Assembly (NCBI GenBank): GCA_008632985.1 | Contig: QPGO01000172.1 | Span: 124,001-159,496 of the forward strand | DNA length: 35,496 nucleotides | Direction of reading: 5' to 3' | From: Psammoneis japonica | Taxonomy: Eukaryota | Shown here: positions 1-35,118 of the stretch, one piece after another | Layout of the letters: the number at the start of each line of letters is the position of its first letter | How positions within the stretch are numbered: position 1 is the stretch's first letter | The notes under the pieces: model-generated | The model's database searches: none | Told to the model about the DNA's origin: nothing | Seen by the model: only the letters and a program-made list of their open reading frames with translations | Position numbers and translations under genes: made by a program

Positions 1-444
1 CATGGCGCCAATGCCAGCTGCAATGATTCCTCCACTTCTAGAATGGCATGCCAAGGAGCAAATTCAAAAGCACAATGTCTGCCAGCTTGCATCAACCAAA
101 CAAATGAGCTGCAGAGGGAGGCGGGGCAGCACCTGGTGTCTTTCACAATCGCGACATTCTGTGTTCGGCAATCAATTGAATCGACTGACTCGCTGCGTTG
201 GTGTTTGCGTCAATCTGCAAAGTTGGCAAACTCGAAGTGGAACACCAAATGAACTGTTGTCAAGAAAAGTTGACGCTGTGCTGGCAACCATTTCAAAATC
301 TTGTTGGAACATTGGACGTTGCAGTCCAGCTGACAAGTTGCAAACAAAAGCGCCACTCTGCTGGCACGGCACATGGGATTGGTTTTCCTTGTCCTTTGTG
401 AGATGCATTTGAGCACAAATGATGAACTGCGTCTAACTCCTGAG

Positions 445-1446
445 TCAGCTCATCAACAAACGCTCGTGCCAAACACTGAGTCAAAGGGAATGTCGCCCAT
501 CCCTTGTCACAGCACTGGATGACAATGGCTGCCCATCCAGCGTTTTTGTCATGTCAAAGCTTCCCAACTGCGGCAGGTGAAAATGACAAGTCCCAAGATC
601 CAACAAGTTGTCACAGCTGTGAAAGGTGCATGTGAGCTCCACATCAAATGTGCAATCTGCCGCATGTGTCGGCTTGGAGAGCTCCCTCTTGTGGCACTCC
701 AATGACTTGAAATGCTGTCAAAGCAAATTTGTGCTCTGTGGCATGTCAGCTTGTGGTGCGTGAGGTTCATTCCGGGGCAAGTCTGTGCTGAAGCTCTGTG
801 CTCCACTGGCAAGGAGCTCTGGCATGCGCAGCTCTTGCAAGATGAGATCTGCGACCACACCCTGTGACAGTCTGCAAACAAAGCTCTTGATGATGTTTCC
901 AATCAAAGGAGGTGGTGCCGGATTCAGAAGCTTTTGGAGCATGTCACCAAAGTGAACGCGTGACATTTTCAATGGCTCTTTGAACTGTCCTTGAACTGGC
1001 ACTTGCTTCTTCACCCTTGAGCGTTGCTCAGCATGCACATCGTGAGGTTGTGTTTCAAAGCCGAGCGAGAATGCTCTGCCCTTGAACAGTGGGGACTCAA
1101 ACTCTGTGCAGGGGCACCAACCGGGTGTGTTGCTTGCTGCAGTTTCCTGTTGTGATTGTGTCGTCGGACATCTGCATGAGTGACAGCTGATGAGGCCAGT
1201 CAGCAACATGATGCAGGAGCAACTTGAGAGCTTTTGCCAAGCATCTTTACATTCGCTTGCTGAGACACCACAGCATTCACCAAATGGCGCCATGTTCAAT
1301 GTCAGTGGAAGTGCCTTTTGGCACCTTTGGACCACCAACTCATGGGCAGAGAGTGGATCACTGCCATCAACCACTGGACACAATGACTCAGTGCCAGATG
1401 ATGTGGCACCCCACTCTGTGCAAAGAGCTGTTGTTCCCATTTCCAT
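445..1446 (-). pseudogene. DUF1769-like domain protein pseudogene
   Basis: ORFs 718..1446 and 481..702 share one frame, split by TGA at 720-718 and 483-481, and continue as *LSVWHERLLMS*. Motifs EFESPLFKGR, VQGQFKEP..SRV[H]FG, PAPPP, DL, T[C]TFHS[C]DNLLD..LDGQPL and WHERL occur in the order recalled for DUF1769 proteins. Confidence 0.72.
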
Positions 1447-1581
1447 TCATTCGTCCTCCAAGCCAGTCGTGGCTGGAGACGATGCAACTCGAGACACATC
1501 AAAACCACTCAACGATGCCACTCAAACCTGGATGACTTGAGACAATGCCTTTCAAGAGAAGAACCTGCAGAAGATGCAAAA

Positions 1582-1799
1582 TGAATGAATGAACATCAAA
1601 GCATGGGTCAGTGTGAGTTGCAAGTTGCAAAGTGCCGATGCAAGGCCAGACGAGTGCCGCCAATGTGTCTCGCCACAGATCACACAAAAAGCATGCCCCC
1701 AAGACAGGGGACACTTTTCTCATCTGTGACAAAGAGATGACAGCAAAACGGCGTGAAACAGAGGAGGTGCATTGAACGAATGAACATCAAAGCACGGGT
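1582..1799 (+). repeat. 27-nt direct repeat pair (1582-1608, 1773-1799)
   Basis: tgaaTGaatgaacatcaaagcaTGggt vs tgaaCGaatgaacatcaaagcaCGggt. Both differences are CG/TG. Confidence 0.9.
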
Positions 1800-2030
1800 T
1801 TGCCAAACTCATCGAAGACAACTGCGAAAAGACCCGTGTTTCGATTTCCACATGACGACAACTCTCTGTTTCTTGCCAAACCAAGGGCCTCACCTGACAA
1901 TTCGACCTCCCAAAAGCAATGTGCGCATCTTCAAAGAAGGAAAATGATCAAGAACAGCTCAAACAAGGCAGACAAATGCTGTTGTGTGGGCCGGCTGTGC
2001 GTCATCTCCAAAACAAAAAACAAAGCGCGA

Positions 2031-2235
2031 TTTTTTGTTCATTCATTTTTGTGTTTCGTTTGAATGTGCATCCAGTTTTTTTTTCGATTTTTTACATTCT
2101 TTCCATTTTTTGTGCATTCATTTTTGTTTGAATGTGCACCCAGTTTTTTCAATTTTTTGCAGTTTTTTGATTTTTTGTTCATTCATTTGTGTTTGATTCT
2201 GCTTCCATTTTTTCCGATTTTTCCAGCTTTTTTGT
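2031..2235 (+). repeat. T-rich degenerate tandem repeat, about 3 copies of ~65-75 nt
   Basis: ttttttgt(t/g)cattcattt..gtttga recurs three times, and gtttgaatgtgca(t/c)ccagtttttt recurs twice. Confidence 0.8.
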
Positions 2236-3655
2236 TTTGCTTCTCTGCAAAGGCTTGGTCTTGTTGAGCTTCAAGTCAAGATGCTGCGATGCTCACATGT
2301 TCGAATGTGTCTCATTGTTGATGCCGATCGGAAACAAGCACCACACATGGCGTGGTGTTTCAATTTTTGATTCGGCGATTGCGCTGAGCAATCGCATGGT
2401 GGCCTTGCATGACTCCTCATCAAAAGACCCGAGGTGAGTGTGCGAGTGTGGGAGAGATGAGGAATCAAACAGCAACAGTGCAGGAATTGTTTTTGTCAAG
2501 GGAATCTGTTTTCTTGTTCAGTGGAATAAAAACAGCATGAACTTGCAAACAAAAATGTGATTTTGGATGCGAGCAAGTCTTCTGTCAAACATTGGCCAGT
2601 CTCTTCAATGACTGTGCAGCTGCAAGCTGTCATGGGAGAGAAGTCTCTTCCATCACACATGTTGTCATTGCACTTGGCCGGTTGCCTGCTGAATCGATGT
2701 CGTTGGTTTGCACTCGAGACAATGCCGCGCTGCCGGCGTCGACCGCAATCTTCGCTCTTGGCTCCCCCCACACACTGCAAATTGCCAAACACTTGGCAAG
2801 AATGCGCGCAAAGCACCTTCGTTCACCTCTGAAGGGAAAATTTCCATTCGTTGAAATTTGGCAACAGATCCACACAGAAATTTGCAGCGCTGCATCTTGC
2901 TGCTTTCCGGCTCCCGCCTCCGACCTCCGACGAAGACACAGCGAATCATGAAGATGTGCCCAACAATGGCGGCACCCATTGTCATCAACTCTGCCAATTT
3001 TCATCTTCTCCCATGTTTCGTTCAGCTCCAAATGGCAATGAAAGAGAGCTTTGGTGCTTTGCATTGTTTCCACTGGCGGCTTCGCTCACATTCATTCTCC
3101 GTCTGTGCCACTTTGATGTCCCAGCTGGCATGATGCGCAGCTTTTGCTTTTGTTCAGGAGCACTGCGGCTCAAGTTGTCATTCATCAACTGATGCTGGTG
3201 AATTTGTTCAACTGTTGAACACCTGGTGTTGCTGTCTGCACATTTGAGGCAATGGGAGAGCAAGAAATGGCTTGTGCAAGAGCGCGCAACTCATCATGTT
3301 GCTTGGCAGATGTGCAGTGGAAAGCAGAGTTGGATGTGATCAATGAAGAGATTGAACTTGTGGTGCACAGGAGGGCAAACATCAGCTTCTCTCTGTTGGC
3401 TCACTTGCTTGCAACTAATTTTGGATTAGATCCCATGCCACTCCAAGTTGTTTGTTCAATGCTGCTCCAGATTCAATGCCACTCTCTGGGTTGTTTGTTC
3501 AGCACCACTCCAGATGAGATGCTGCTCTCCAGGTTCTTTGTTCAGCGCCACTCTGGGATGAATCTGAGGTCAAAAAATGCCCCAGCTGCATCAAGATTCT
3601 CATTTGCGCGTCCTTCGGCTTGGGAGAATGTGGCAATTGCCACTCCTGCAAAAAG

Positions 3656-3875
3656 GGCCTGTTCCAGCTCCAGGTGCTCTGCTTTTCATCACGCGAGAGG
3701 CCGACTTTCTGCGCAGTTTGGCACAATTGACTCCTTCAATTTTGATCGTTTCGAAAATCGAAAGGTGAATGTACACCCGAAAATGCATGTAAAGTGTGCA
3801 CTTGCCCTTCGATTTGGCAAAAAACCAAATGATGGGAATCGAACCCGCGCGGAGCACCTGGAGCTGGAACAGGCC
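3656..3875. mobile_element. Putative 220-bp MITE with perfect 24-bp terminal inverted repeats
   Basis: ggcctgttccagctccaggtgctc (3656-3679) and its exact reverse complement (3852-3875). AAAG flanks both sides (3652-3655, 3876-3879). Confidence 0.75.
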
Positions 3876-6800
3876 AAAGGAATGTCATGCAGTGGTTGCG
3901 ATGATTTTTGTTGTCATGCCAATGGCTGCCATGACATTCATTGCAGCACATGTGAAAGTTGTGGGAGCACCTGTTGCATGGAATGCCGCGAATCTAATCA
4001 GAGCGTTTGTTTGCATGTGAGCGGGGCCAAGCAAAATGATTGAGCCGCGTGTTCCAAGGTGTGACGCGCACTGCAGGCATGTCGCCACACAGGGAAACAT
4101 GGATGCACGCACACACAGGCCAAGGCTCAGCGACATCATTCCTGAACTGTGTTGGAGTGGGATCTTCACTTTTCTATGTGAGCACCCACTGGCAACCCCT
4201 GCGTGTGTTTCTGCGCGTGCTCTCGCACTGATGTCGCCCTTTTCAGACGGCGTTTCGCTGAGTCCCCTGTCAACCTTTTGGCCCCTTCTACCATTGGTGC
4301 ACCCTTTTATCTCCATGATGTGCAGTGATTTTCAGTGGAAAACGACTGGCGTCAACACTTTATGGTTCGCATGCTTGTTGTCTCATTTGGTGATTTTTTG
4401 CGGATTCGGTGCGATTTCTACACAGAATCCAGCACAAATTCTACGCGCTTCAGAAACATGTGCCGACAGTCATCACGTCTCCGATACGATCAACTTCCAT
4501 CCTCACCCGAAAGCCCCCAACAATTTCTTTTACTCCCACTGGCCACTCAAGTTCTTCACCTCATGTGGTGAAAGTGCTGTCCCTGTTGTGGCGCCTGCGA
4601 GTGTTTGCATGGACAAACCATCGGCATCATCTGACGACCGTCCATTTGCTGCGTGGATCGGCTTTTCTACGCAAGATTCAGTGTCAATTCTACGTGAGAA
4701 CAACATTTCTTCTGACGACCTTCTCGTCACATCACCAAGACTTCCTGTTTCATCCTTGCAAGTCACGAACATCCCCTTTTCCACTTGCTGGCCTGCCAAG
4801 ATCACTGTTCCGAGCAGTGAACTGCACATTGTTGTTCTGGTTCATGCAATTGTGAAATTCAATCAGTCTTTGTTGAAGACAAGATTCTCCCTCAGAGGCA
4901 AAGATTTTCTCTCAGAGCATGCGCTGACTTTGAATTCTCTGCTCAACTTGATTGTCCTTTGCTGTGGTGGTTTGGGTGCCTTGCATCCTCTCCGAAAGAA
5001 AGCAACAATCTCATTCTGGTGCAATTTTTCCTTGACCTTTTATCACTGGTGCGTGTCGCTGCAAAGCGGCGCATTGACCGACTGATCGCACGATGTTCTG
5101 CCGCACTCTCCTCGCAGGGTGTGCTGGAAGTGTGGGCCAGCCGGCACCAGTGTTGCTGGGCAAAGGTGCAACAGCACTTAAAATTGGGTTTTGGTTTTTT
5201 TGTGTTGGAGTGGGATCTTCAAACACTGTCTGGATTGTGGGGCACTCTCCCGAACGAGCCGTTTTGCACTTGGCTGTCTCATCTGCTGTGTTGAAGCCTT
5301 TTGCCCTGCCTGGTGTTTAGAAAGCCACAAAATCAATCTCAGCTTTTCATGTTTTCAGATTGTCTCAATGTTGAGGATTGGCGTCTTGGTGACAATGACA
5401 GCACGCTGTGAGTCTCATGCTCGACTCGACGTTGCCGCAGGATGCAGCCATTTTTGGAGCCCCACATGGCGGCACTCAACAGGTCTCTGATCCCACCTTC
5501 TGACACGCCAGAACTTCATTTGCATTGACTTGTTTCTCATTGCTGTTTCTTGGATGGCAGTTGGTGATGCTGGCTTCAGTGTTGGATTGGTGCAAGTGTC
5601 CACAGTTCTTGGGCTTGCCCCTGTTTGCAACTTTCTGGTGGCGGGCTTGGATTCATTCAAGATTTGAGCTTCACGAAAGACCATGGTTTTGGGGGCATTG
5701 TCCTTCATGGAATTGATTTGTTGGAGACTCAGTCACCTGGTGCAATGAAGGAGGAGAGACCACAGCAATCAAAAAGTGCACTGTTCAAGGTTGAAGCAGG
5801 ATGGCACAATGCCGCTTGCTTTTCAAATGAACAATCAGTCAGAATTCTTGGGCACACCAAAGCCGATCCAGACAACGACTTCATGGATCTGTGCCTCCAT
5901 TTTAATTCTGCTGAGATTTTCTTTTCGGAAAACAGGGAGAAGTTGCAGGAATCTCAGACCACAGACAATTGAGATTGAAGGGTCGTGTTGGAAGATGAGC
6001 ATGGGCCATTGAGATTGAGGGTCATCCAGGGCCAAGGTCACATTGGAAGGCAAGAAATGCAGCAGCGCATCACAGCTGGTGGCAACCCACTTTTTTCAAG
6101 TGTCTTTGCAGCTTTGCTGGGTGGGGCATTGTTGCAGGTCAATTTCAAAAATTGCTCCAGACTTGCAGATTGGCTGCAGCAGGGAGCTTGCAGTTTTGCT
6201 TCTCCTCCTTTGGACTCCTTGCTTCCCACAAACTCATGCATCCAATGAGCTCCAAATGACAGTCGCCAAACTTTTGATGGAGGATTTCTTCTTCCATGTC
6301 TGCACAACTGTCGTGTTGATTGTTCAAGCCACCACCATGTGTGAAAATGTCAAGACGGACTCAGCAAAGCAATTTGGAAGCAGGACAGTTGGCGGGCATC
6401 ACATTGGCATCAAAGACCACCCCATCAGGCTTTGACACTTTGCCAGCATTGTGGAGCACCGCACTCTTGCACACAGAGATTCTGGAATGCAGCACAACAA
6501 ATGTGAAAGAGTCCAATCAAATTGAACTCTCCCTGTGCTTGAGAGCACCGCCGGTGACTTGAGTTGTCTGAGGATGAGATGATTGGAGACGTTCTTGAGC
6601 AGCGCATTTTGTGGAGTTGGGGTTGAGATCCATCAAGACCAGCTCGCTCACCTTGTGTTTGGCATTGTGCAAGAAGCACCTGCTTGCGACACCAGCATCC
6701 AAGTGATGATTGCCCACGGACCTGTTGCACATTGCTTTTCTTTTTCCAGGGGGCATTTCCAGGCTTGCCAAATGGTGGTCTCCAAAACTGCCCAGTCTCA

Positions 6801-7869
6801 AAGGGGCAGCGTCAAAGCCCCATGGCATTTTGCACCGGCACTGTGGTTTTTGCTGCAGCAGATGATGGCATGATGCAAGTGTGAAGTGTTGCAATGAGCA
6901 CTCACAGCGCTGTCAGCTCATGTCTTTTCCTTTGACTTGATCACAATCTGGTCACTGTCAATTCTTTCGTTGTCATTGTCTCGGCTGGACTCGCAAAGCA
7001 TGAGTGAGTCAGTGGCGGCTGAGATTTGAGGGCAGAGACAGATCAAGAGGTTGCAAAAAAGAGAAGAGATGCAAGTTTTTGAAATTTTGGAGTCATTGTC
7101 CTCGTGGATCTGGATTGAAAACACCGGTTCTGACAAATGTTCTGTCCAAAATGCCGAACGAACAAGCAGGTCGTGGTTGTCATTGATGATGCTGACGACA
7201 ACAACGAAGAAGATGACACAGGTGAACAGTGAATGGCGACAATGCTCTTGCATGCAAGTGATTCTGTGGGGTGTGGTTCAACAGCAAGGGGGTTGTTGTG
7301 AGTGTTTTTTGTCGTCCTGCTGGTGGTGGAAATGATGGCTGCACTCGTTGTGGCTGGCGCAAGGGACTCTTGGGCTCTTGGGGGCAGCACTTTGTCTTTC
7401 TCAGTTGTTGTGTCTCATTTCAACAACCGGGTCATTCAGTTACAGTGACAAGGGAAATGGGCCGGGCGTTTCAGTCGAGGACACACATCAGCTCGACTGT
7501 TTTCTCATCACGCTGGGGGTTTGGTGGCCCATTTGTCGTGGCAACCAAGTCTTCGAGGTGGTGGGGTGCAGCTCCCAGTTGTAATTGGCTGTTCTAAAAA
7601 CACTCTCTAGTCCATGCTATTTTGTCACATTTCCATCTATTAAAGCTGTTCTCGTCATTGCAACGATGACATACATCTACCGGGCGGCAGCGTTTGGATC
7701 CGAGACTAACCACCTGTGCGAACACTGTCAGGGAGATAGAAGGGATTACTTCCACGTGGAGTCGCCTCGCAGTTTGTTGAACTTCAACCTGCTTCGCACC
7801 GTCAGTCGAAGATTTGTGTTCTGTTTTTTCATTTTGCGGAGTGATTTGCGCATTATCGACCCGTTCACC

Positions 7870-11904: not shown

Positions 11905-12160
11905 TCCTCTCAGTTGTACCCAAGAGTGACGTGGATGGCGTTTCAACACTGATAAGAGTGAGCTTGAAATACTTCGTTTGCGCTTATCCATGATTCCGAA
12001 TGTCAAGTTCAATGAAAGAGCAGTTCAAAAAGTTATCGCTGGAGAGGGAGGATCAACAATTAACCTATTCTAAACAGTGATTCATTCGATCAGCGGTTTG
12101 ACAATGGCAAAAGAGACGATCTCTGTGTTTTGACCATATGTTTTAGGGCAAGGTATTGAT
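11905..12160 (+). pseudogene. Degenerate partial copy of the 3' end of the gene at 14319-15286
   Basis: Aligns to 15063-15316 (tcctctcagttgtac.caagagtgacgtggatggcg ... tgtgttttga ... aggtattgat), with a 1-nt deletion after ggatggcg and further indels and substitutions. Confidence 0.9.
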
Positions 12161-14318: not shown

Positions 14319-15286
14319 ATGCCCATTCAAAGGATATCTTGTAGCTCGATCCGTCGTCGTGCCTCCTTTTCCGTTGCTATTCTCTTTGCGTTGTTGTTGG
14401 GCCAAGCACCGGCATCTGTAGCTCAAACGAGTTTACCCGTCGTGGGACCATCAACACACAACGTTCGAGGTGGAGCTGCCTTTGGAAAACAAAATAAAAA
14501 GGTTGCTACAGCGGTGGTGACCTCGTCGGTGAAGCGGCAGACAGCATTCCTCTTGCCGACAGCGGAATGGACGGCAAAAGAAATTGGAATACTATTGCTG
14601 GGACTTGTTGCCGGGCTTTCTTCAGCAGCCGTCATGTGGCTAGAAAACGGCCTCTTGATTGATGTAGTTGCATGGCTGTGTGTATTGTTTGGGTCCAGTA
14701 CCGTGGTCTTGCAGAGGAAACTGACTGATTTTGAGAGTACGTCCGATGCCGTTTGGTGCAACACGCTTGCTAGTTGTTTGTTTCCACGTCACTCACGTAT
14801 ACGCATTGTTTAGCCTTCCGCGAGTTAAACAACGAGACGAGGGAGCAGGTTAATCTATTAAAGGCTGCCAACACGCGACTATCCAAACAGAACAAGCAGC
14901 TAGCGTCAAGCACCGCAAAGCTGGAAAAGGCGCAGTCGGCCTTGAATGAAATCAGTTCGAACCAAGGAATGACTGTGGATGCGTTGGTCAAGCAAGTAGA
15001 ACAGTATAAGAAAGTTCAAGATCAGATGAAACAATCGATAAAGGCAAAGATCCGCCAGACTCTCCTCTCAGTTGTACTCAAGAGTGACGTGGATGGCGAT
15101 TTCGAGATTGATCAAAGTGAAATTGATACACTTTGTTCGCGCTTATCCATGATCCCAAATGTCAAGTTCAACGAAAGGGCATTTCGAAGAGTTATCGCCA
15201 GAGAGGGAGGATCAATAATGAACTTTTCAAACAATCATTTGGCCAGCGACTTGACAATTGCTAAAGAGAAGATCTTTGTGTTTTGA
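14319..15286 (+). CDS. Hypothetical membrane/coiled-coil protein with EF-hand-like loop (exons 14319-14736, 14814-15286)
   Basis: Two or three hydrophobic segments. Intron 14737-14813 (gtacgt...tttag) joins the frames as DFE-T-FRELNN, followed by a coiled coil and a DVDGDFEIDQSE loop. Confidence 0.85.
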
Positions 15287-18077: not shown

Positions 18078-18947
18078 GTCTACCACATGGCCGAGGGGGG
18101 GGGGGGGTGCCGGATTCGTGGTGGGCTCCGTTTGATGTTCGCACCGACCTACGCACAACATCAAAAGAAAAAGCAAGATTTAGTCAATAGTATAAACTTC
18201 AAACCGTACATTCGCATTCTTACATATCCAATGACAACACAAGAGCTTTGAACCACAATAAAACAAAAACTAACAAGCCTTCTCACAATTTTTCCTCGGC
18301 GCAGCGGGTAGAATCGACCGGTGCAACAACCAGTGTCGATCGGAACAAGCAACAAAGCAGCGGATCAACAATACAGCAATCCACCTCACTCGCATTCTTG
18401 CGTGTTTATATGACAACATTAGACCTCGCTAAAGAAACAGAACCGAAAATCAATCGAGTACTCTTGCTTCTTCTTCCGAATGCAAAAGAGAGAAGAAATT
18501 GCAAGTGAGAAAATGGAAAAGTACATTTCAATATTTTTATACTGTTTGGAATTGCAGTACAGTAGCCCCATTTACCTCACCTTGATTATTCAAAAGAAAC
18601 AATGTTCTAGCTATCGACTGAATAAGATGAACCGAAACGAAACCCCGCCGTGCTACTTGTCGCTTGTCGGCACCCTCAAAATGCTTCAACATTTCTTCCC
18701 CATTATTGGCAGCTGAATTTCTTTACCTTCCAAGCAATTTCAAGCAAACAACCAAGCTGGGGCATTCCTTCGAATGTTGATAATACAAAGACCTGATCGT
18801 CAGTACATGTTACGCTTACAACGACCGTCGGAACACACACTTCCCGCGTCATGGTTATTATCGCGGAGGAAGGCAGAAAAAATGTGCGACCTCGGTCGAG
18901 CGTCCGTCCGTCGAGCATGTTATGTCGAGGTCTTGCCGTCACAAGTC

Positions 18948-19246
18948 TACTACAAATTGCAAAACAATTGCGCGATACACGTGCCCGAAGCTCGAATGTC
19001 GTTGCCCGAAGCAACATTCTCCCTTCGCGCAGATGTCAATTCTACGTATGATGTGGTATCAAAATTTTCATTTTGGTCCCAGTCATTTCATCAAATGACC
19101 TTGTGGTACTCTCCTACGTGATCTACGAAAATCGGAGCTTCGGGCTGGCTGGTACATTTTCTACAGGCTCTACGTGCGCGAAGCTCGAATTTCAACAATC
19201 ACCCTTCGGGCACGTGAATCGCGCAATTGTCTTGCAATTCGTAGTA
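18948..19246. repeat. 43-bp imperfect inverted repeat (18948-18990 / 19204-19246)
   Basis: tactacaaattgcaaaacaattgcgcgatacacgtgcccgaag vs the reverse complement tactacgaattgcaagacaattgcgcgattcacgtgcccgaag (40/43). Extra gcccgaagc-like motifs lie between the arms. Confidence 0.88.
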
Positions 19247-19303
19247 CTGTACACAAAATGTTGGAACTGTTTCTACGCTCGTGCAAAAATGTCGCTCTAC
19301 AGA

Positions 19304-19376
19304 CGCTAAAAAACCGTTAGACCTCGCTAAAAAACCGTTAGACCTCGCGAAAAAACCGTTGGACCTCGCGAAAAAA
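19304..19376 (+). repeat. 21-bp tandem repeat x3.5
   Basis: cgctaaaaaaccgttagacct x2, then cgcgaaaaaaccgttggacct, then cgcgaaaaaa. Confidence 0.93.
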
Positions 19377-19429
19377 GCTCGTGCGTGGAGGAAAGTGAGC
19401 TGCGAGGTCTGAGGTCCAGACAAAAAGTT

Positions 19430-22400
19430 TAGCGGCCGCAATGCGCAATCGAAATCACCAATCACAGCAACATGAACCATGATGAAGACATTATGACGGA
19501 CAACGCCGCGATGCATTGAGCCAATTTACTGTGCATGTGTCGACATCATTGTCGTCACCCGCAGCACGGCAATGACACCATTTGAGCATTGCATGCTCTC
19601 GTGCTTGTTGCTTCAATCCCAGCCATCATGTGGAAGAAGAGCTTTGCACACTGAACAGTGACGACGACACAGCGGGCACGAAAGAGCATGACGTGTCTGC
19701 CGGTGCATTGGGGAGGGCAGTGTGTCTTCAACTGCCATCATCTCTCCTCGAAACCGTGGACGAATCTGCTGAAATTGTCTTTGAAGCGCCCGAAACATGA
19801 GAAACGTCGATGGAACCCCGAGCGCAGCAGAAAGAGAGACAAGCCTGCAAGTTGAACCGACAAGCAAAACCGACGTGTGTTGCAGTTCGTTTTCATCACA
19901 GAATCGTGTCTGGAATTTGTTGGGAGAGTGTCGACACGCGGCGCAACTCAAGTTGCCTTTGACACACAATGGTGCGAGACCTTGGACGAAAAGCAAGAGA
20001 GCGAAGGGAAATCGTGTGCCTCGAAACAGATGCTGATGTTTGGGAAGAGCAGCGCACTTCCAACGGAGGTGGACATGGAACTGCATTTGCAGAAACCAAG
20101 CGTTGAAAGAGCACAGGCCCGGCAACAACGAAGCGGCGAATTGCAGCTCTCAAATCGCAACGAAACAGTTCTGACCAAAGAGCAGATGCGTGGATCCCAA
20201 GTGCCTCAGATGTCCCAGAGTTGACAAAGGAAGAGTCTTCCAACACTGTCCAACTCCATGGTTGCCTTTGGGGGTCTACCCAGAGCACATTTCTAAATTC
20301 TTTCTGGGGCCACAAATGGAACATGTCTTTGTCATGCCGTGCTTCTCAGCAAGGATTGCCGCGTGGGACTCAAAAGTTCAAGGCAAAAGGCCGTCGCAGC
20401 CAATCATGAAGAGACATGGTCCAGATTTCAGGGTCTTTGTCAAATTACACTCTGCTCCATTGGAGGAAATGGCAACATCCAGACTGGTGAAATTGTGCAT
20501 TTGGAGATCAGCGGCAAGACCGAAGGAGCAGCAGGTCTGTGGCTCCGGCAGCACGGCCGCGCGCAACTTGTCTTTTGCTCAATGTGGTGAGCACACTTTG
20601 CTTGGGAACAACAACATCGCTTGCTGTTTGCACTTTCTCACAATTGCTGCTTCACATTGCCATCAACGCTTGCTCAAACTTGGGCGAAGCTTGCCCCCTG
20701 TGTCGCTGGTGTTCTTTGTTCCTCCACTTCTCATGATTTGACCTTTCTCCTGAAGGAAATGGATTTGTTGACAAGCACTGCCCTTGGCATGAGGATCTCA
20801 ACGTGTGCAACCAACAGCTCATGAGTCACCACAAAGATTTAATCCGGGAGTGCGAGAAGCTTGAGTCATCGGCAACTTGTGTTTTGATGCATGTCTACGA
20901 CCCCGAGTTGTCTCAGGATTCGATCGTTCGTCCAACAAGTGCCGCATCAAGTGTCCTTTCCAAAAGCATTGAGGAAGCAAGGAACAAGCTTCAGCAAGCC
21001 TTTCTCAAGCTTTGTTCCAGCAGCGGAGGTGACGCCAGCCCACTCAGACTTGGGAAGGAGGTTTGTCATTTTCCATTGCCTTCTGGGTGCTGCATTTCCA
21101 CTTTTGAATGATGCAGGATTTTTTTCGGTGAAACCAACAATTCCCGTTGTTTCATCTGTGCATGCACAATCCAGGAAGTTCAAAGCTTGGCGAGCAACGT
21201 CGGCTCCACATCTTTTGTGATGCCCAGGCTTGGCTCCGCTCAGAGGGGCACTCTGCAAGGCGAGCTGAACATTCTGAAAGACTGCAAGCGACGTCGAACG
21301 ACATTCTTCTGGGTCAAGCTCATCCTCTGTGCAGTGCAAGAACATCGTGACACACTCATCAGCACAACTGTGCAGAGCATGCAACACATTTTTCTGCCAC
21401 GGCTTGGATCAGATGTCAAACCCGCAGAAAACTGAATTGTTTCTTGAATGTTTCTCATTCACGGCTCAAGTGCTGCATCTCCCGATGAGAAGGAAAGTCA
21501 ACTGCAGAGTCGTCGTCATCGTTTGATTCCAAGAGACCAGTTGATGTGGCGGCAAGACGTTTGGAAATGCCCGATTCTGTTGCAGGTGGTGGTCGTTCAC
21601 GTGTGTCTCAAACGCTCAAACGGCAAACGGCATGTTGTCTCTTGCACTCGCCCGGTGCACTCGATTGTGATTGCACCACACATGTTGACATTTGTCACAC
21701 ACGTTGACATTTTTCACTGTTTCTCATTTGACACGTTTTGGCAGAGCAGCCAAACTCGGGATCCGTGCTGTGTTGTGATCTGTGCTGCTTGACTCAACTC
21801 ACACATGACTGCCATTGCTTTTCACACTTGCAGCGGCAATTTATGGCAATGCAGTTTGCGGTGTGATGATGGCGGGTCTCACACTGATGCATCAAATCAG
21901 TGTTGGTGAATCATCACGCATCATGCCTTCGTGATTGGGCTTGCTTTCCTGTTTTGCGGAGTTGCCAAAAGATGCCAGTTGTGTGTGTTGTCTTGTCACC
22001 AAGGAGGTTCTTTGGCAAAAGCTGGATGCATTGCAGACTTGAACCTGGCCTTGACAGACGTCAGTTGAGCGAACCTGCTCTCAGTTTCTCTGCAATTAAT
22101 TTGCAGAGGCAGTCGCCTGCTGCAAGTGCACAGCCAGACTTTGTTGCATGCCAGCTCTTCGCGAGGACGAGCCACATGAGAAGAGCCGAGGGACGGCATG
22201 GACACGATGGATTGCCGTGCCCCAATTTCTGGCAAGCTCAAGATCAACGTGTTTTGCGTGCTGACACCGCCATGCATGCACACGCCTCCTCTGATTGCTC
22301 GCAGATGACTGAACCTTGAGCATGTTTGTTGGCGCACCAAATCTGATGTGTTCCATCTGAGTTGATCCGCCATCTCAGGCACCTTGTCGGAAGTTTGTCG

Positions 22401-23580
22401 TGATTTAAAAAATGGGAGACACACAAGATTGAGTTTGCTTTTTTAACCCCGCCCCTGTCCATCCTTTGGGACATGTCGGCCCATCATCCGGCTGTCTGTT
22501 GAGTGGCTCCGATGGATGGAATTCGATCTGAGCATTTTGGAGGAAACTCACCCGGTCGCCTTCCTCCACAAGCATCCGAAATGTGGAGGGGCGTTTGATT
22601 TGCGACAATGATTGTGGCATGCATCGTGAAGGCCCACTCGTGAAGGCCCACTCGAGTGTTTGGAAGGCACATGGAAGCCTCTCATGAGGACGATGGTCCC
22701 TTTCACATTCTGCGGCAGGGTGTGTAACCTTTGAGAACCCAAGAATCACAGTCCTCTGTGTTTCGGAAGCACTCGAGCATTTTTGGGATTTGCCTCCTTT
22801 GGAAGCTTTGGAGCTTTCTAATTTCACTCAGAACATGGAACATCGTGCTGGGATCAACCCTTCAACCACCAGGGGAGCAAATCTCCACAGGTGGAGATTT
22901 GCTCTGCTCAAGGATGTGTGACGTGTCATGCACTTTTACAATGACATGATGAACACAGTAAAAAAAAGTCATGTCGTGCACAATCTGCGTAAAGCACACC
23001 ACGTGCATTTGCTCATTGGGAGCAAATCTCCACACCGGCGGAGATTTGCTCCCAAGGTGTGGCATTGTTGCTCCATTTGTGACAGCAATTCCTGACAAAC
23101 TGCATTGTCAGAGGTTGAGATTTAGTTCCTTTCTGTTCATGGATGAAGCTTGCAAAAAATCCGGTGTTAAAAGTCGACATTGAACTTTCTAAACTGCAAA
23201 AAGGGTGCCTCCAGATTTTCGGCGAGTGCGCGTTCCAGAACAAAATCACGCAAATGAAATGTCACACATGTCTGAAATTACTTCATTTGCCACATTTGTG
23301 ATGCAAGCGAGCAAATCTCCACTTGCTCAAGTCCGGTGGTTGAAGGGTTGGAGTGGTGTTGTCAGTTGCATGAGTGCAGTTTGAAGGTTGGCAGCATGAT
23401 GGTTGTCTGAAACCCAAACTGAGAAAAGTATTGCTGCCAGCTGATGAGAGCCCAAATCGGCAAAAATGCCATCAGACTGCTGTCCTGCCTGACTTGACAA
23501 GCCACGCACCTGGCATTGTGTTGAGAGGAACAATGGGAGGGGCAAAGGTGTTGCGGGCAGTGCGCACAATGCTGCACTGC
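19430..23580. other. TpA-depleted (TG/CA-rich) degenerate domain B
   Basis: Roughly 20-25 TA in ~4.1 kb by manual count, with none in 19530-20276 or 20899-21841. Nearly all ORFs are Tyr-free. The flanks have normal TA density. Confidence 0.93.
22875..23328. repeat. Cluster of gagcaaatctcc palindromes/hairpins
   Basis: 14-bp perfect stem 22875-22888/22891-22904; 16-bp perfect stem 23016-23031/23040-23055; third half-copy gagcaaatctccac-ttgctc at 23309-23328. Confidence 0.9.
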
Positions 23581-24090
23581 TCTGTCTTTAGAGCCACACT
23601 CTAGATTGTGCACCAGGTGGACGATTTCATTTCATCTGAATAAAGCCTCCAAAAGAATCTAGACTGGGGTGCATTCCGCAAGAAACATCCACGAATGCAT
23701 GAGAAGCAGTGGATGGGAAAAAAAAGCATCCAACGGAAAAAATCGAGCGGCAATCGCTGTACCAGATGCTTCCAATAGGGTTTAAAAAGACTCTTCCGAT
23801 GCGATTGCCACTCGATTATCAACATTAACGCCGCCGTAAACGATTTGCTCACCATGGTCGAAGTCTTTTTTTCTCGTGCAAAAAGCACAAGGATTGTGGG
23901 GTGGCGGACGAGCGTGCAAAAAATAATTTTAGTCGAATTATTCAGCTATAACGAATTCTTTTTGTACCAAAGATGTACGTACCTTTCTACACTGATATAG
24001 CGTATTAGAGTATTGACATTATAATAAGAAATCCTTCTAGATCTTTTTGAATATTTTTCTAGTGAATGTAGATGTCATGGACGACGAGAA

Positions 24091-25014
24091 ATGACACCGA
24101 GAGCGGAGCAACTTGAAACAGAACACAATGACGAGAACATTGAAATAGAAACAGCTCCGCTCGCAATGAACTCGAACCAAGAGCCCTTCAACGAAGCAAA
24201 CCCCGATCGCGCTGGTGCCGGTGGTGATGGTGAGCAGCCTCCGCCGCCTCGCGTGGAACCGCCGTTGTCGGAAAGATCGGCGGCCAACGTTGTTGAGATG
24301 ACAAGGCAGATGGTTGAATCCGTAACCACAGCCGTCACCACTACCGTCCGTTGTGTCCACGGGTAAGTGACTTGACTTGTTACTTTGCTGTTATTTTCTG
24401 TTGATGTCTCTGACCGTTCCATCCTTTTTGCGCTGCACAGATTTGCTCCTCAAGACATCACGGGGGCCATGCCACCCACCATTGCGGTGCCGGCGGCCAA
24501 TCAACCAGCTACGGTGGCTCAGCCTTTTGGCGCCGCCGCCAACCAGTCCAACAATTCTGGGCTGGCTTTTGGCGTGCCGAGTACGTCGACTGGATCTGGT
24601 GGGACTATGGCGGCCCCTCCTGCTGCGACTTATCAGCAGCCGTCTGCTCCTTTTGGTGGCGCTATGGCGGCCCCTCCTGCTGCGACTTATCAGCAGCCGG
24701 CTGCTCCTTTTGGTGGTGCTATGGCGGACCCTCCTGCGGCCAACCAGCCCCCGGCTGCTTCTTCGGGCTCTGGGGTGGCAAATAATGCGCCACCGCCAGT
24801 TGACGAAAGCGTCGTCAACGCTACAAACGGCGGCTTCATGTCGTATGGTGCCGACGCTGGTGGGACGGTTGTCATACCTTCTGCTGGTACGGCTGGAGAT
24901 GACGACGCTGCAGACGATGCAGCAGTAGACAACGGCGAAGACGACGATGGCGAAGGCGACGACGTCGTCGACGACGGCAATGCGGATGCGGCTGGGGACC
25001 ACGACGCTCTCTGA
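24091..25014 (+). CDS. Low-complexity Pro/Ala-rich, acidic-tailed hypothetical protein (exons 24091-24362, 24441-25014)
   Basis: Intron 24363-24440 (gtaagt...cacag) joins VHG to FAPQD in frame. Internal 57-nt repeat MAAPPAATYQQP(S/A)APFGGA. Confidence 0.72.
24598..24745 (+). repeat. 57-bp coding tandem repeat x~2.5
   Basis: atggcgg(c/a)ccctcctgc at 24607, 24664 and 24721. Confidence 0.9.
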
Positions 25015-25287: not shown

Positions 25288-27163
25288 CTACTCTTTAAAA
25301 TCAATACTCATCAAATCAAACGTGAGGCCTTCGGCAAAGGACCCATGCAGAGCATGAGGTATAAATGTGGGGAGCTGAACCCGTACAACTGGGCCCTTTT
25401 CCAGAGATCCCTTCCCCTCAACATCCATAACAACGAAGTCTGTTGTAAGGTCTCGTCCATTTACTACATAAGTAACAAGATACCCCTTGTCTTCCTGGTT
25501 TGGATTGGTCACGTCTGCTCCCTTTTTCGGGCAAAATACAACTTCGCCGGGGAATTCGTATGGCGCAAACGAAAACGACTCGGACTTTTCTGGTTGTGCC
25601 GTATCGAGTTTGAGTATGGCACCGCCGGGAGCACCACCACGACCATTGGGTTTGGTTTCGTAAGGCTCATGGGCGCCGACAGTATACGTATATCGATGCT
25701 TCTTGCCTGACAATGCCATTGGAATTGACGGAAATTCATTGGAGCGAGCGGAAATCACGTCAAAGCGAGTTCCTGGCGTGATACTCTCCAGCTCGGGAGA
25801 CACCGAAATTCGCACGTACTTGTTGGGAACGAAATCGTCCCAGTCAACCTGGTCCCATACCGGAATGTCTTTGGAAAAGCCGGCTCCAAGCTATACCGCA
25901 AGAAAGCGCGACCCAATGAGTTTCCAGATGCAAAACAAGCTAATCATGATAAACACACGAAACATGCCCTACCTCTGCTTCTTCCGTCATTACGGAATCA
26001 AACACAACATTGCCGTCTTCGTCCTCAAAGGCATTGGCAAAGTGAAAGTTGAAATGATACGGAACCTTGATTACTTTGATTCGTTTGTCTTGTCCTGCAC
26101 GAATATCTGCAGCCGTTCCCTCTTCGAGCTGTGTAATGCGTGGTACCAAAAAGACAGTCGACTCGGTAGCTTGAGAATCAAAGTCCACAACCTCTGCAAA
26201 AGCCGCTTGCCCGAACAAGGCCATAAGAGCCTTTTTGTTGTTAATGCCTGCGGGAGGCATGCAAAAGACATGCCAGTTCTCAGTAAGGACGTAATCATGA
26301 ACAACGGCGGCGCCATCAAATACAAAGGATACTTCATCCGTTCGGATTGGTTTCATATCCTTGTCGAATTCAAACAAGTTGATCTTGCTTTCTCCCTTTG
26401 CAGGATCGAGGCTCGTACCGAAATTAACAATGTTACCAGAATGGGAATCATATCGGTAGTGTGCCGCAAACTTGTCTTGGTCCTTCAAGAGGCCATCTAG
26501 GTCATGTCCCTTTGGTTCCTTGTCTACGTCGTTTTCCAATGTCAATGGATCTAGAATATATGGCCATCCACCTTCCCAAAGGGCGTACAACTTTTCTCCG
26601 CAGTACAGCACGTGGGTGTTGGCCACATTCTTGAAGTCGGTTCGAAAGAGGTTTGCGAAGAAGCCTCCAGAGACTCGTGTACCAAAGATACCCGGTTGAC
26701 TCATTTTCCCGGTTTCTAAGTCAGTACGATATCCTTCTGTGCGCACAAATCTGTTCCGAAACAAGAGCTTCTTCTGACGAGGATCAAACGTTATGGCTGA
26801 AACGAGGCCATCTCCATCAAACATGTGATGAGCACAAACCCCATCATCAGACTCAAACCGTCCATGGCCATTCCGATAATAAGTCCCTTCAGGAAAATCT
26901 TTGGGCAGATCCGGACAATCAATGACTGTTGCTGGTATCTCTTTGGGACACGTTGTGTACCCTCTCGCCCATGCTTTTTGGTCGTGGCCGGAGCGACTCA
27001 GTGCTGGTGAGGTGGAAGCTGCTGCTTGTCTACTCGTTGTGACTGCCATTCTTAGCGGATTGTGTTGTCCAACGGTCCAGCCACGAACGGGCTCTCGCAA
27101 GATCGTGACAAGCACGAGAAGTGCCGCCATTGGGAACTTCTTCCTACCGAGTCGTCGTTGCAT
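25288..27163 (-). CDS. Carotenoid oxygenase (RPE65/CCD/ACO family), probably plastid-targeted (exons 27163-25973, 25890-25288)
   Basis: Motifs LPKDFPEGTYYRNGHG, HMFDGDG, FRNRFVRT, NVANT, ALWEGG, FAAHY, VVHD, FHFANAFE, EVVFCP and PHALHGSF, which include the iron-ligand His motifs. In-frame intron 25972-25891. Start may be 27163 or 27130. Confidence 0.95.
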
Positions 27164-27777
27164 GATTGATGATTGGTGGCAACGAAATGAATATAACGCA
27201 GTTTTTCCGTTCTCTTTTCTATCAGGTACGAATACTGCAGTTTTCCACAACGAAGGAAACACGTTAGTTATGACGCTAAAGAGCGAGGTCAGATGATGCC
27301 GATCAACACATGCAGCATGGTTCCGGCCGCTGGTGATGAGCGGCATCTTTCGTCATGTTTTGCAACGTCAGGACAAGTTGGAAATCAGAAATCCAATGGA
27401 ATCCGGAATCTAGCTCTAGATGTGTCTGCTTTGAAGTTCCGGATTCCGTAAGCAAGTTGAAAGTAGAGATGAATTCGTTGGTGCGACGCGCGTCCCACCA
27501 TGGCGGTCAGGCATTCCTGCAGCACCGATATTCATCTTCAGGCAGCTCTCCATGGCTCATCCGAGAGCGCATTGTCTAACGATTCTAATGATGTGTCTTA
27601 AATGCCAACAAGGCACGTCATGATAATTTTTTTTACCACAGCTTTGCAGCACCCGATGAAAACTTGTGTTTTCGAGTCGCTCACAGATACAAAATGCGTG
27701 GCGAAGGGTACGTGCCATTCTTTGTATTTGATACTCATGTTCTCATTTCTTGCTGCTCGCTGCTTCTCTTTGTTCAG

Positions 27778-32232: not shown

Positions 32233-33651
32233 TCAATCGTTGTCTGGCTGCGTAGTCTTGGGGCTTACGCGACGTTTTAATCAACCCGCCTTTTTTTGTC
32301 ATGAGCTGCGGCTGCATTTAATAAGTCGAGAATAGAATCATCCACTACCCCAAAGTCTCCTGCAATTCGAGAGCATCTTTTGACGAAAGAGCTTCACGAA
32401 GATGTTGCTTCAATAGTTCAAGCAATTCTTGCAACTTCTGTTAGGGCCCTAGAGAGAGACTTGCTTCACGTGTGCTGCCAAATCGAGTTGAAGGCGCCAG
32501 CATTGGGTCCTGAAAGGGATTGACTTTATGCGTTGCCACTTCCCAAAACTGGTGCTGAAGAGACTTGGTAAAAACTCGAACACCGGCATCATCAAATATG
32601 CGGTAAGCAAATGTCCCGGAAATGCTCTCTTTCTTAAAACCATGCACTATCCTGGAGCGGAGTCGAAGCAAACTGATCAAGTCGCTCATTTGTTCACACC
32701 TTCAAAAGATAGTGCCGTTCCATTGGCATCAAATGATTCTTATCTTGTCGCTACTACTTCCTTCCGATCCACGATACGAGATTTACCACCAACTCGTAGA
32801 TAGACCTCGTTGTGAGGCACAATAATCTACATGCCTCCTTCGATTACCTTGGTTGTCCTAAAGTGGTCGTTGTTATGAAGGTAATGGTGATTGTACTCTC
32901 GCAGTTTTGTCAGTAATGCCAGAGCCCCCGTCTCCCATTTATCAACTTGCCACGCAATACTGTGTACGCAGTAGATCCCCCTAACAACAACACTTTTGCG
33001 GCTGTTTCTATAATGCATAGAGGGTGACACTGCAGAGGGTCAGACGAGCATCGTATCGCATTATCCAAACGAGTGCCAAGCATGCAGCAACAATTCCACG
33101 GCGTCCATTTTCCCTTCAAATTGCAGTGGTGAACAACGAGCTACGATAGAAGGCAGGCATGGCATGTACCGTACACAAGAGCACAGGCTATTGATCTTCC
33201 AACTTCCAATTTGCTCAACGTGTTTCCTGCTTGTTTGCGTGGTATTCTTTTCGTCATTGCGTTACATTCGTCTTGATTGCGCTTCATCGTTTCGTCCCCT
33301 GATGTCATCAAAGAAACATTCCTTTTCGTTTTCGTATCGTCATGTACAAGTGCTGGCATCGGACATCATCATTGCTGGATTTCATTCTTCATTCTTCTTC
33401 GATTGCCGATCTGGCTGGAGATCCGGAACCAGGTAACCGCCGGGTTCGGGATCTGACGTCACACTTCTCCAGTCAGGTTTCAAATTTGAAAGTTGCTACC
33501 GAAGGTCGTACCGTAGAATTCTACGAAGATAAAAGTGATGATATACAGATTGAAGAAATTATATTATCATGAACAACGATTTTGGCGATTGACACAAAAC
33601 TGAGCACGACAAACAGAAAAACGAAGACGACTTGTAGTCGTACGGCAGACA

Positions 33652-35118
33652 ATGGCCAAGGATTCCAAGCCACAGAGCAAGCCACGGAGAAAGAAGAAGA
33701 CTAAAAAGGAGAGAGAAACGGCTGCGGAGATTGCCCGGGTAAAGAAGAATGCGACGCAAACGCGATACAGAGAGAGAGTGAAGGAAAAAAAAGAGGCGGC
33801 GGCCATGGCTGCTGCGCACGCCGCTATCTACGGACACTCTCAACGCCCTGCTGGTGGCGGGCGGCCGCCGGCTTTTCCAGTCTCTGCTCCTCGACCGGCA
33901 ATCGCCGCTGTCCATGGACACTCTCAACGCCCTGCTGGTGACGGGCGGCCTCCGGCTTTTCCAGTCTCTGCTCCTCAGCCGGCAATCGCCGTTCATGACG
34001 GATATTATCCACTCCCCGCTGGTGGTGGGTGGCCTCCCGCTTCGCAGTTCCACGCTCCTCACAATCATTATGGATTTTCTCCACTCCCCGCTGGTGGTGG
34101 GTGGCCTCCCGCTTCGCAGTTCCACGCTCCTCACAATCATTACGGATATTCTCCACTCCCCGCTGGTGGTTGGTGGCCTCCCGCTTCGCAGTTCTATGAA
34201 CCTCGACTGCCTTTGAACAATCAATCAGCGCGGCCTGGTACTGTGGGAAACAACGTGGCGACAATTGTTGAGAGCGCGACTACCGAGACGCCTCCGGTTC
34301 TACCGTCACATTCGGCGGCGACTGTTGAGAGCAAGACAACCAAGAAGGTTCAAGAGTCATCCGAGAGGGAGCAGCTTGTCGAAAAGACCAAGACAGTAGA
34401 TGTGGCCAATGACCGTGAGAAAGCTGTGCACTCGAAGCTCTTTGACGAGAGTGAAACGTTGCAGTTTGGGGAAAAAACAGGACTATTAAAAACGCTTGCT
34501 GAAGTAAAAGGGTTGACTGTCTTAGTGCATGGCTTGTTGGAATTCAAGGCTGACCGTTCCATTTATCTTGTGGGAACTCACTTGGAGTTGATAGGAGCAG
34601 ACATTCGATTGCCCGCAGTGGATTTGATTTGGGTTCGAAAACCGCATCGTCTTGATAATTGTCTCACGGAGATTGTCGATTCGGACGTTCAGAATGAAAA
34701 TCACCCGTTTGCAACTATGGGTATGGAATGGTACGATGTCAAGACAACCTTGGAGGAGTACCAAGGACGAATCAAAATTTTGCGTGCGTTGGAGAAATTG
34801 GAAGAGTTGCCGGTAAACTGCGACGAGAAATGGAGACGCAGCAACAGCAATTTGATGCTCGCACCTAGCGTAAATGCAGCTCGAATTGTAAGAGTTGTTC
34901 GTGTTATTGACACGCACGGCATTTTTGTCGACAGCAAGAAACTTCTGGAATCCCTTCATAATGGTGTAAATCGACAACTGTATCCAGTGTTTGGTGTCTT
35001 TTTGAACGGTGTCTATCATCGTCATCGCGGCGAGCTCCCTGTTGCAAGCCACACGAGCACGTCCAAGAACCAAAATGCTGTGCGACCTGAGGGGAAAGAT
35101 GGCGATAATGGCTCATAA
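33652..35118 (+). CDS. 488-aa hypothetical protein with a basic N-terminus, Pro/Gly-rich repeats and a globular-looking C-terminus
   Basis: Single long ORF in normal-composition DNA. K/R-rich NLS-like start; 84-nt repeat x2 (33832, 33916) and 72-nt repeat x~2.7 (34009, 34081, 34153). Confidence 0.75.
   Translation: MAKDSKPQSKPRRKKKTKKERETAAEIARVKKNATQTRYRERVKEKKEAAAMAAAHAAIYGHSQRPAGGGRPPAFPVSAPRPAIAAVHGHSQRPAGDGRPPAFPVSAPQPAIAVHDGYYPLPAGGGWPPASQFHAPHNHYGFSPLPAGGGWPPASQFHAPHNHYGYSPLPAGGWWPPASQFYEPRLPLNNQSARPGTVGNNVATIVESATTETPPVLPSHSAATVESKTTKKVQESSEREQLVEKTKTVDVANDREKAVHSKLFDESETLQFGEKTGLLKTLAEVKGLTVLVHGLLEFKADRSIYLVGTHLELIGADIRLPAVDLIWVRKPHRLDNCLTEIVDSDVQNENHPFATMGMEWYDVKTTLEEYQGRIKILRALEKLEELPVNCDEKWRRSNSNLMLAPSVNAARIVRVVRVIDTHGIFVDSKKLLESLHNGVNRQLYPVFGVFLNGVYHRHRGELPVASHTSTSKNQNAVRPEGKDGDNGS

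Follow-up and report, generated by a model that had tools for sequence, protein, structure and literature searches.

A TpA-erased block in Psammoneis japonica

The DNA analysed here, called the window throughout, is a stretch of 35,496 nucleotides from the diatom Psammoneis japonica (GenBank assembly GCA_008632985.1, contig QPGO01000172.1, positions 124,001 to 159,496 of the forward strand). It contains two blocks in which the dinucleotide TpA has almost vanished: block B, the subject of this analysis, and a companion block, domain A, which covers positions 1 to 7440 and is open at the window start. The bounds of B were determined by a maximum-likelihood two-rate segmentation of the TA density, which places the block at 19340-23585 (4246 bp). 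Within these bounds 22 TA were counted compared to 171 expected at the background rate (binomial P = 4.5e-48), and the TpA erasure in B is thus a real and highly significant feature. The listing of all TA positions contains two long gaps without any TA, one of 750 bp between 19527 and 20277 and one of 946 bp between 20896 and 21842. In two background stretches, no such gap is longer than 169 and 177 bp, respectively, and the chance of a TA-free gap of at least 750 bp at the background rate is about 1e-14 per TA, that of a gap of 946 bp about 3e-18. The depletion is continuous, with an observed/expected ratio (o/e) of TA of at most 0.16 in all sliding 500-bp intervals from 19501 to 23001, and both edges are sharp, the TA rate changing about 14-fold inside roughly 100-200 bp. 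A preliminary description of this DNA, made from the letters alone, had listed a fully bounded block of ~4.1 kb at 19430..23580 with TA-free runs at 19530-20276 and 20899-21841. The runs correspond to the two gaps, and the block was recovered with a left edge about 90 bp further left.

The loss of TA is accompanied by a gain of CA and TG and by a loss of CG. The TA o/e is 0.08 in B, 0.05 in A, and 0.59 in the rest of the window, the corresponding values for CA are 1.61, 1.73, and 1.15, those for TG 1.55, 1.59, and 1.16, and those for CG 0.68, 0.53, and 0.98. The remaining 12 of the 16 dinucleotides are near their rest-of-window values in B, and neither AA (1.23) nor GA (1.13) is depleted. The GC content of the block is 0.499 compared to 0.478 in the background. 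B and A therefore carry the same signature, and they do so without any similarity to each other that could be detected by sensitive blastn or tblastx, in agreement with what had been described before.

Copy number and agreement with a public sequencing run

For comparison, k-mer contigs of a public run, termed X1 here, were available. X1 is possibly the source sample of the assembly, and neither the platforms of X1 and the assembly nor the library type of X1 are on record. Three X1 contigs (921, 798, and 1635 nt) span 19503-22820 with nine substitutions and two gaps and thus match the TA-free text of B at >99.5% identity. The depth of these contigs is 63.7, 73.3, and 59.6, and that of unique flank contigs 58-75. 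Because the depth over the core of B equals that of the unique flanks, the core is single-copy. In addition, sensitive blastn and tblastx searches revealed no second copy of B inside the window.

X1 and the window differ at nine positions in 3354 nt of B and at six positions in 2454 nt of the flanks. Six of the nine differences in B are exchanges between CpG and TpG/CpA, so CpG in B is still unstable. Another of the nine concerns the erased dinucleotide itself, the TA at 20446-7 of the window being TG in the X1 contigs.

Composition model and strand symmetry

The composition of both blocks can be reproduced by starting from the background DNA of the window. If 95% of its TA are randomly turned into either TG or CA and the same is done with 35-45% of its CG, the simulated DNA agrees with both blocks in the 2-, 3-, and 4-mer spectra within sampling noise. 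The distance to B at k=3 is 0.014 for the simulated DNA (95% of TA and 35% of CG converted) compared to 0.041 for the unmutated background, and the distance of 4-kb background chunks from the background as a whole averages 0.013 with a maximum of 0.021. B therefore has the composition of host DNA plus two classes of transitions, and not that of foreign DNA with a composition of its own. The GC gain from 0.478 to 0.499 is as predicted by this model.

The conversion is strand-symmetric. B contains 391 TG and 376 CA, which are interleaved without strand patches (z = 0.91 in a runs test), and TG minus CA, taken per 200 bp, is not more dispersed than it is in background DNA. This interleaving points to many independent events on both strands and does not fit a single processive pass along one strand or transcript.

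The few TA that have survived are not a random sample. For the 39 TA remaining in A and B, a MITE-like insert in B (miniature inverted-repeat transposable element; see below) being excluded, the neighbouring bases deviate from the Monte-Carlo expectation (P = 0.0005, n=39). TTAA (6 observed, 1.6 expected) and CTAA/TTAG (8 and 2.6) are favoured, and ATAN contexts are depleted, namely ATAT (0 and 2.7), ATAC/GTAT (2 and 5.8), and ATAG/CTAT (1 and 4.6). This could mean that the process acts on ATA more readily than on TTA, or that the surviving TA have newly arisen by mutation. The bias is a hint of a sequence preference that extends beyond TA. Concerning the second transition class, B and A both display the pattern of CpG decay, a CG deficit together with an excess of TpG/CpA, and the o/e values of TA and CG per 500 bp of the blocks are weakly correlated (Spearman 0.41, P = 0.065, n=21).

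Domain A and the direction of change

The direction of the change can be read in domain A, because A contains the remnant of a conserved eukaryotic gene. A Duc1-family pseudogene (PF08588; Pfam E = 2.1e-8 and 1.5e-6) is encoded at 484-1446 on the minus strand as a single 963-nt frame with one in-frame TGA and without any frameshift. A word-based homologue search retrieved nothing for this remnant, and an exhaustive HMMER search retrieved 59 homologues at E <= 1e-3, the top 40 of which were aligned. Among these top 40 of the 59, tyrosine is the most common residue in seven alignment columns. In six of them, with tyrosine frequencies of 0.64-0.97, the remnant has histidine (two columns) or cysteine (four columns), and in the seventh (frequency 0.41) it has leucine. 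Overall, the remnant contains no tyrosine at all and about 6% cysteine, the homologues 3% tyrosine and 1.1% cysteine. At 92 conserved columns the remnant has 37 mismatches, of which TA>TG/CA changes explain seven and CG>TG/CA changes five, the three control classes of transitions explaining two, none, and none. The replacement of tyrosine by histidine or cysteine means that TAY codons became CAY or TGY codons, so the loss of TA in A is derived and not ancestral. The direction of change in A is hereby demonstrated directly.

Two further observations were made in A. The sub-block 3991-4700 has kept 11 TA (o/e 0.26) and an almost normal CpG content (0.86), and is flanked by fully erased stretches with TA o/e values of 0.03 and 0.02. 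A more recent insertion or a lower exposure of this segment could account for it. An open frame of 354 amino acids at 4021-5082 on the plus strand is longer than those in 99.5% of the dinucleotide shuffles of A. It had no match in Pfam, in the word-based homologue search, or in IMG/VR, and may be another erased gene remnant.

Anatomy of block B and its edges

Most of B, from 19340 to 22856, is a single-copy non-coding core according to contig depth and to tests of open reading frames (ORFs), period-3 power, and stop codons. Its TA rate is 0.0028 per bp compared to 0.039-0.042 per bp in the background, which means that about 93% of the expected TA are gone. None of the 46 ORFs of at least 60 residues in B reached the Pfam threshold, the only three matches being at chance level (E = 0.03-0.1). 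The period-3 power of B is 0.99 and that of the genes in the window 3.9-5.9, although this test is weak given that the genuine Duc1 remnant reaches only 1.45. Stop codons are spread evenly with 24-34 per frame over all six frames, and the longest ORF, of 188 residues, is close to the mean of 194 in dinucleotide shuffles. Counter to these results, B contains seven ORFs of at least 140 residues compared to 3.0 in the shuffles, a number reached by only 1 of 300 of them. We left this excess unexplained because the stop codons are even in six frames and the composition of the ORFs resembles that of a random translation. An IMG/VR scan, a method that sees only close relatives, revealed no relatives for three ORFs of B and one ORF of A, and the ESM Atlas gave no usable match for the longest ORF of B. 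Taken together, the searches of Pfam, IMG/VR, and the ESM Atlas yielded no homologue for B. LTRs or other long terminal repeats were not detected in B by a repeat search of the window, and Rfam and tRNA searches of the window gave no match.

The core is followed by a high-copy MITE-like insert of ~496 bp at 22857-23352, which was delimited by depth, contig breaks, and sequence. It has 16-nt terminal inverted repeats, CAACCCTTCAACCACC and GGTGGTTGAAGGGTTG, and its interior contains repeated GAGCAAATCTCCAC hairpins. The X1 contigs over the insert (bins 22719-23320) have a depth of 3600-4800 compared to about 60, which corresponds to roughly 60-80 genomic copies, and many contigs have loose ends at 22856/22857, the left boundary of the insert. 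The insert holds seven of the 22 TA of the block. Compared to the remaining block, TA is thus more frequent here (Fisher P = 0.010) and still far below background, the o/e values being 0.19 for TA, 1.62 for CA, 1.64 for TG, and 0.59 for CG. Past the insert, the distal remainder of B (23353-23585) contains one TA in 233 bp, with o/e values of 0.07 for TA, 2.10 for TG, 1.72 for CA, and 0.26 for CG.

The left edge of B lies inside a 21-nt tandem repeat of 3.5 copies (19304-19376), which was identified by Tandem Repeats Finder and confirmed in the sequence. Copies 1 and 2 contain the last dense TA, the final one at 19339, and copy 3 is located inside the block. TTAG in copies 1 and 2 corresponds to TTGG in copy 3, a single informative site and therefore anecdotal, and the other difference between the copies, CTA versus CGA, is a transversion. 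A high-copy repeat region adjoins this edge (18806-19407; depth 4000-4600 in 300-bp bins). Two inverted arms of 52 nt, located at 18948-18999 and at 19195-19246, are part of it and are 87% complementary, and the region has a normal TA content (o/e 0.70) and a high CG content (1.57).

Origin of the signature

The most probable explanation in our view is that B represents the near-saturated footprint of a locus-restricted DNA hypermutation from TpA to TpG/CpA, in a domain that was also subject to methyl-CpG decay. The starting material would have been ordinary single-copy non-coding nuclear DNA of the diatom, in which A following T was changed to G, as read on either strand, in many independent events until near saturation. 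In the same block, roughly one third of the CpG would have turned into TpG/CpA, which is what cytosine-methylated silenced chromatin would be expected to show. Judged from this combination, the process may be targeted via silenced, methylated chromatin and perhaps be nucleated by the adjacent high-copy repeats. Its chemistry could be adenine deamination (A to inosine, which is read as G) at TpA by a putative DNA adenine deaminase, in analogy to what has been proposed for the alga Bigelowiella natans. The outcome would be a lasting inactivation of the contents of the domain, exemplified in A by the Duc1-family gene, which lost all of its tyrosine codons. The preliminary description had argued that an identical fingerprint on unrelated sequences points to a host process acting on chromatin domains or repeats. 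The host process is supported by the dissimilarity of A and B, the k-mer spectrum of the host, the changes of tyrosine to histidine and cysteine, and the single-copy state of B. Repeats as the trigger are not supported for B, where only the 0.5-kb MITE-like insert is repeated, and for chromatin domains the sharpness of the edges and the decay of CpG are only indirect hints. The counter-case considered at that time, that A and B belong to one element family with intrinsically TA-poor copies, fails because B is single-copy by depth.

Several observations weigh against the hypermutation of resident DNA. Neither an ancestral nor an orthologous copy of B was found, and the direction of change in B is indicated indirectly by composition modelling, by the one polymorphic site (20447), and by analogy with A. 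The match to the X1 contigs is strong but not fully independent with respect to a systematic base-calling error, because X1 may be the assembly's own sample and its library type is unrecorded. The diversity of B is no higher than that of its flanks and ongoing hypermutation is thus unsupported. Only about 15 TA targets are left in B, so that a low diversity would also be expected of a burnt-out domain, and domain B looks burnt out and not currently hyperactive. The MITE-like insert carries the skew of B as well, though more weakly, and none of the best-supported differences between the insert and its other copies restores a TA. This copy could have been altered at its present site following a late insertion, or the whole family could be poor in TA. 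Finally, a viral or transposon origin of B was not demonstrated by the Pfam, IMG/VR, and ESM Atlas searches.

Given that TA is self-complementary, A to G after T and T to C before A leave identical double-strand footprints, and because of this palindromic nature a route via thymine is indistinguishable by sequence. Such a route could consist of a thymine-side lesion (oxidation or modification of the T in TpA, then mispairing or faulty repair) or of a biased mismatch repair or gene conversion favouring TG/CA. TA and CG, all pyrimidine-purine steps, converge on TG/CA, which could mean one step-specific process. There is no positive evidence for a lesion at thymine, however, no system that modifies thymine is documented in this case, and the loss of CpG is explained more simply by ordinary deamination of 5-methylcytosine, and we regard this route as unlikely. 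The assembly might also be misleading, if bases at TpA (and CpG) were densely modified and the base-caller of a long-read platform systematically misread them as TG/CA. Modification miscalls can generate a context-specific pattern over a whole domain, and the platforms are, as mentioned, unrecorded. Yet the X1 k-mer contigs give the same TA-free sequence at flank-level depth, and residual TA are present inside the domain. Moreover, 25 of the 37 mismatches in the Duc1 remnant are of other kinds and a stop codon is present, which identifies it as a real decayed pseudogene and not as a miscalled live gene. An artefact is therefore very unlikely.

It is even harder to imagine that the pattern was generated in RNA, by ADAR- or ADAT-like hyper-editing of A to inosine in a double-stranded transcript, followed by its reverse transcription and insertion. 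ADARs favour a U 5' of the edited A (bioRxiv 10.64898/2026.01.13.699255, Discussion), and in double-stranded RNA both strands would undergo editing. The specificity of B for TA is absolute, however, AA, CA, and GA not being depleted, and its erasure is far advanced. The neighbour preference of ADARs is merely relative. The TG and CA events in B are finely interleaved without strand-coherent tracts, B is single-copy and lacks a reverse transcriptase, LTRs, and poly-A, its left edge lies inside a genomic tandem repeat, and the host-type gene in A was struck in place without a frameshift. ADAR-type editing fixed by reverse transcription is thus very unlikely. Hardly more credible is the assumption of a foreign or specialised DNA with an intrinsic or selected avoidance of TA, for example in a viral fragment evading a TA-cutting nuclease or as an evasion of the TA or TTAA sites targeted by transposons. 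In favour of it, the homologue searches found nothing for B. But apart from the shift of TA and CG to TG/CA the 2- to 4-mer spectrum of B is that of the host, the shift is common to two unrelated sequences, and the TA loss in A is derived and destroys conserved tyrosines. In addition, selection is an implausible means of removing about 150 TA from non-coding DNA with such sharp edges. A centromere or another AT-defined structure was also considered and rejected, the GC content being 0.50 and two such blocks being present within 35 kb.

Comparison with known hypermutation systems

In searches of the literature for the signature, in diatoms or elsewhere, only a preprint on the chlorarachniophyte Bigelowiella natans matched, and the papers on fungi concerned the opposite direction. 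According to this preprint, mutation rates in mutation-accumulation lines of B. natans are, in some of these lines, ~1000-fold above those of the rest of the genome in two single-copy integrated viral regions, and A>G/T>C changes make up 230 of the 231 mutations, all of these by its text at TpA (bioRxiv 10.64898/2026.01.13.699255). The genome contains 124 clusters in which TpA is depleted and CpA+TpG are enriched, the targets are integrated DNA of nucleocytoplasmic large DNA viruses (NCLDV) and virophages, and an ADAT2-like deaminase has been proposed (Mettrop et al. 2026, bioRxiv 10.64898/2026.01.13.699255). The clusters are defined there by a Rho of <= 0.43 for TpA and of >= 1.52 for CpA+TpG in at least three consecutive 1-kb windows. 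Block B lies within these cut-offs (TA o/e 0.08, CA 1.61, TG 1.55, 4.2 kb) and is, like the two viral regions, a single-copy target. The change A>G/T>C at TpA is seen directly in A and indirectly in B (k-mer model, polymorphism at 20447). Common to both systems are TpA as the only target, transitions that yield TpG/CpA on either strand, a long-term depletion of TpA with a gain of CpA+TpG in clusters at the kb scale, and many targets that cannot be annotated. They differ in that B. natans is a rhizarian and Psammoneis a diatom and thus a stramenopile, and in that the erasure is nearly saturated here (TA o/e 0.08) compared to a Rho of 0.45 in the active NCLDV region. CpG is depleted along with TpA here, and the available preprint text mentions neither diatoms nor stramenopiles nor CpG. 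B has no detectable viral or transposon origin, and A holds a host-type Duc1 gene. The de novo rate in B. natans was measured as ~1000-fold, whereas B is known from sequence, with X1 differences no denser than in the flanks. Block B is a new case, in a new major lineage, of a kind of process that has so far been described in this single preprint.

Repeat-induced point mutation (RIP) of ascomycete fungi is likewise a dinucleotide-specific, region-limited hypermutation by transitions on both strands that leads to irreversible inactivation. However, RIP makes TpA from CpA/TpG, requires duplicated sequence, and lowers the GC content, whereas B shows the opposite direction with a depletion of TpA and an enrichment of CpA/TpG, is single-copy, and has a higher GC content. 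RIP was therefore rejected as an explanation for B. In silenced DNA such as methylated transposons and repeats, including those of diatoms, CpG decays through 5-methylcytosine. The blocks are similar in that their CpG o/e is down to 0.53-0.68 with a gain of TpG/CpA, but this decay covers only part of their CA/TG gain and none of the TA loss. For Phaeodactylum tricornutum, methylation is mentioned in the available part of one paper (PMC6604790), and the word 'TpA' is absent from the available part of a mutation-accumulation paper on the same species. The ADAR (A-to-I hyper-editing) and APOBEC3 (C-to-U hypermutation) systems of animals, whose targets are nucleic acids of viruses or retroelements, resemble the process in being deaminase-type, context-biased hypermutation directed against selfish nucleic acids, with ADAR favouring a 5' U. 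They act on RNA or single-stranded cDNA with strand-coherent tracts and a relative preference for neighbours, whereas B is strand-symmetric, strictly TpA-specific, and part of the resident single-copy chromosomal DNA.

Only fungal RIP and the APOBEC/ADAR systems of animals are well-established examples of targeted hypermutation that serves to defend the genome. It is tempting, though rather doubtful at present, to consider TpA-specific, domain-targeted DNA editing as an ancient defence common to distant algae (Rhizaria, stramenopiles, possibly the whole group of stramenopiles, alveolates, and Rhizaria) that is guided by silenced, cytosine-methylated chromatin and not by duplication or viral origin. 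Such an editing could be the mirror image of fungal RIP, run to saturation and destroying host-type genes in the domain as well. It might even be that one deaminase acts on both A in TpA and methyl-C in CpG, so that all pyrimidine-purine steps end as TG/CA. If the hypermutation is real, the TpA process is not the curiosity of one species, and diatoms are important both ecologically and for biotechnology. The connection to CpG decay, which probably extends to DNA methylation, would leave fewer possibilities for the enzyme and for the mechanism of targeting, and a natural, strictly TpA-specific A>G editor of DNA would be of interest for base-editing technology. For genome analyses, a TA o/e below 0.1 together with CA/TG around 1.6 would be a simple diagnostic for silenced or invaded algal DNA. 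Genes in such blocks lose all tyrosine codons and should be annotated as pseudogenes.

Neighbouring genes

The flanks of the blocks contain intron-poor genes, among them one for a SOUL haem-binding protein and one for a carotenoid oxygenase of the RPE65 type. For the oxygenase, the best relatives that carry a name are from the diatoms Asterionellopsis, Odontella, Coscinodiscus, and Fragilaria, and the best identity, 70%, is to an unnamed protein. By these sequence relationships the flanking genes are diatom genes, and the diatom has no close sequenced relative in the protein collection searched. A metagenome scan near the carotenoid oxygenase gave no more than two short contigs, of 3.6 and 2.7 kb, in which the TA o/e is normal (0.59 and 0.67). 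The carotenoid oxygenase gene (25291-27352, minus strand) consists of two ORFs, 25291-25890 and 25943-27352, and the ~50 nt between them are probably a short intron.

In-frame tandem repeats are present at 33819-34214 (84/72 nt) in the ORF 33604-35115 and at 24584-24754 (57 nt) in the ORF 24376-25011, both on the plus strand. These two ORFs are rich in proline, alanine, and glycine and have no Pfam domain. The region of the SOUL gene is flanked by a 124-nt direct repeat with 82% identity at 11941-12064 and 15100-15223, the two copies being 3.2 kb apart.

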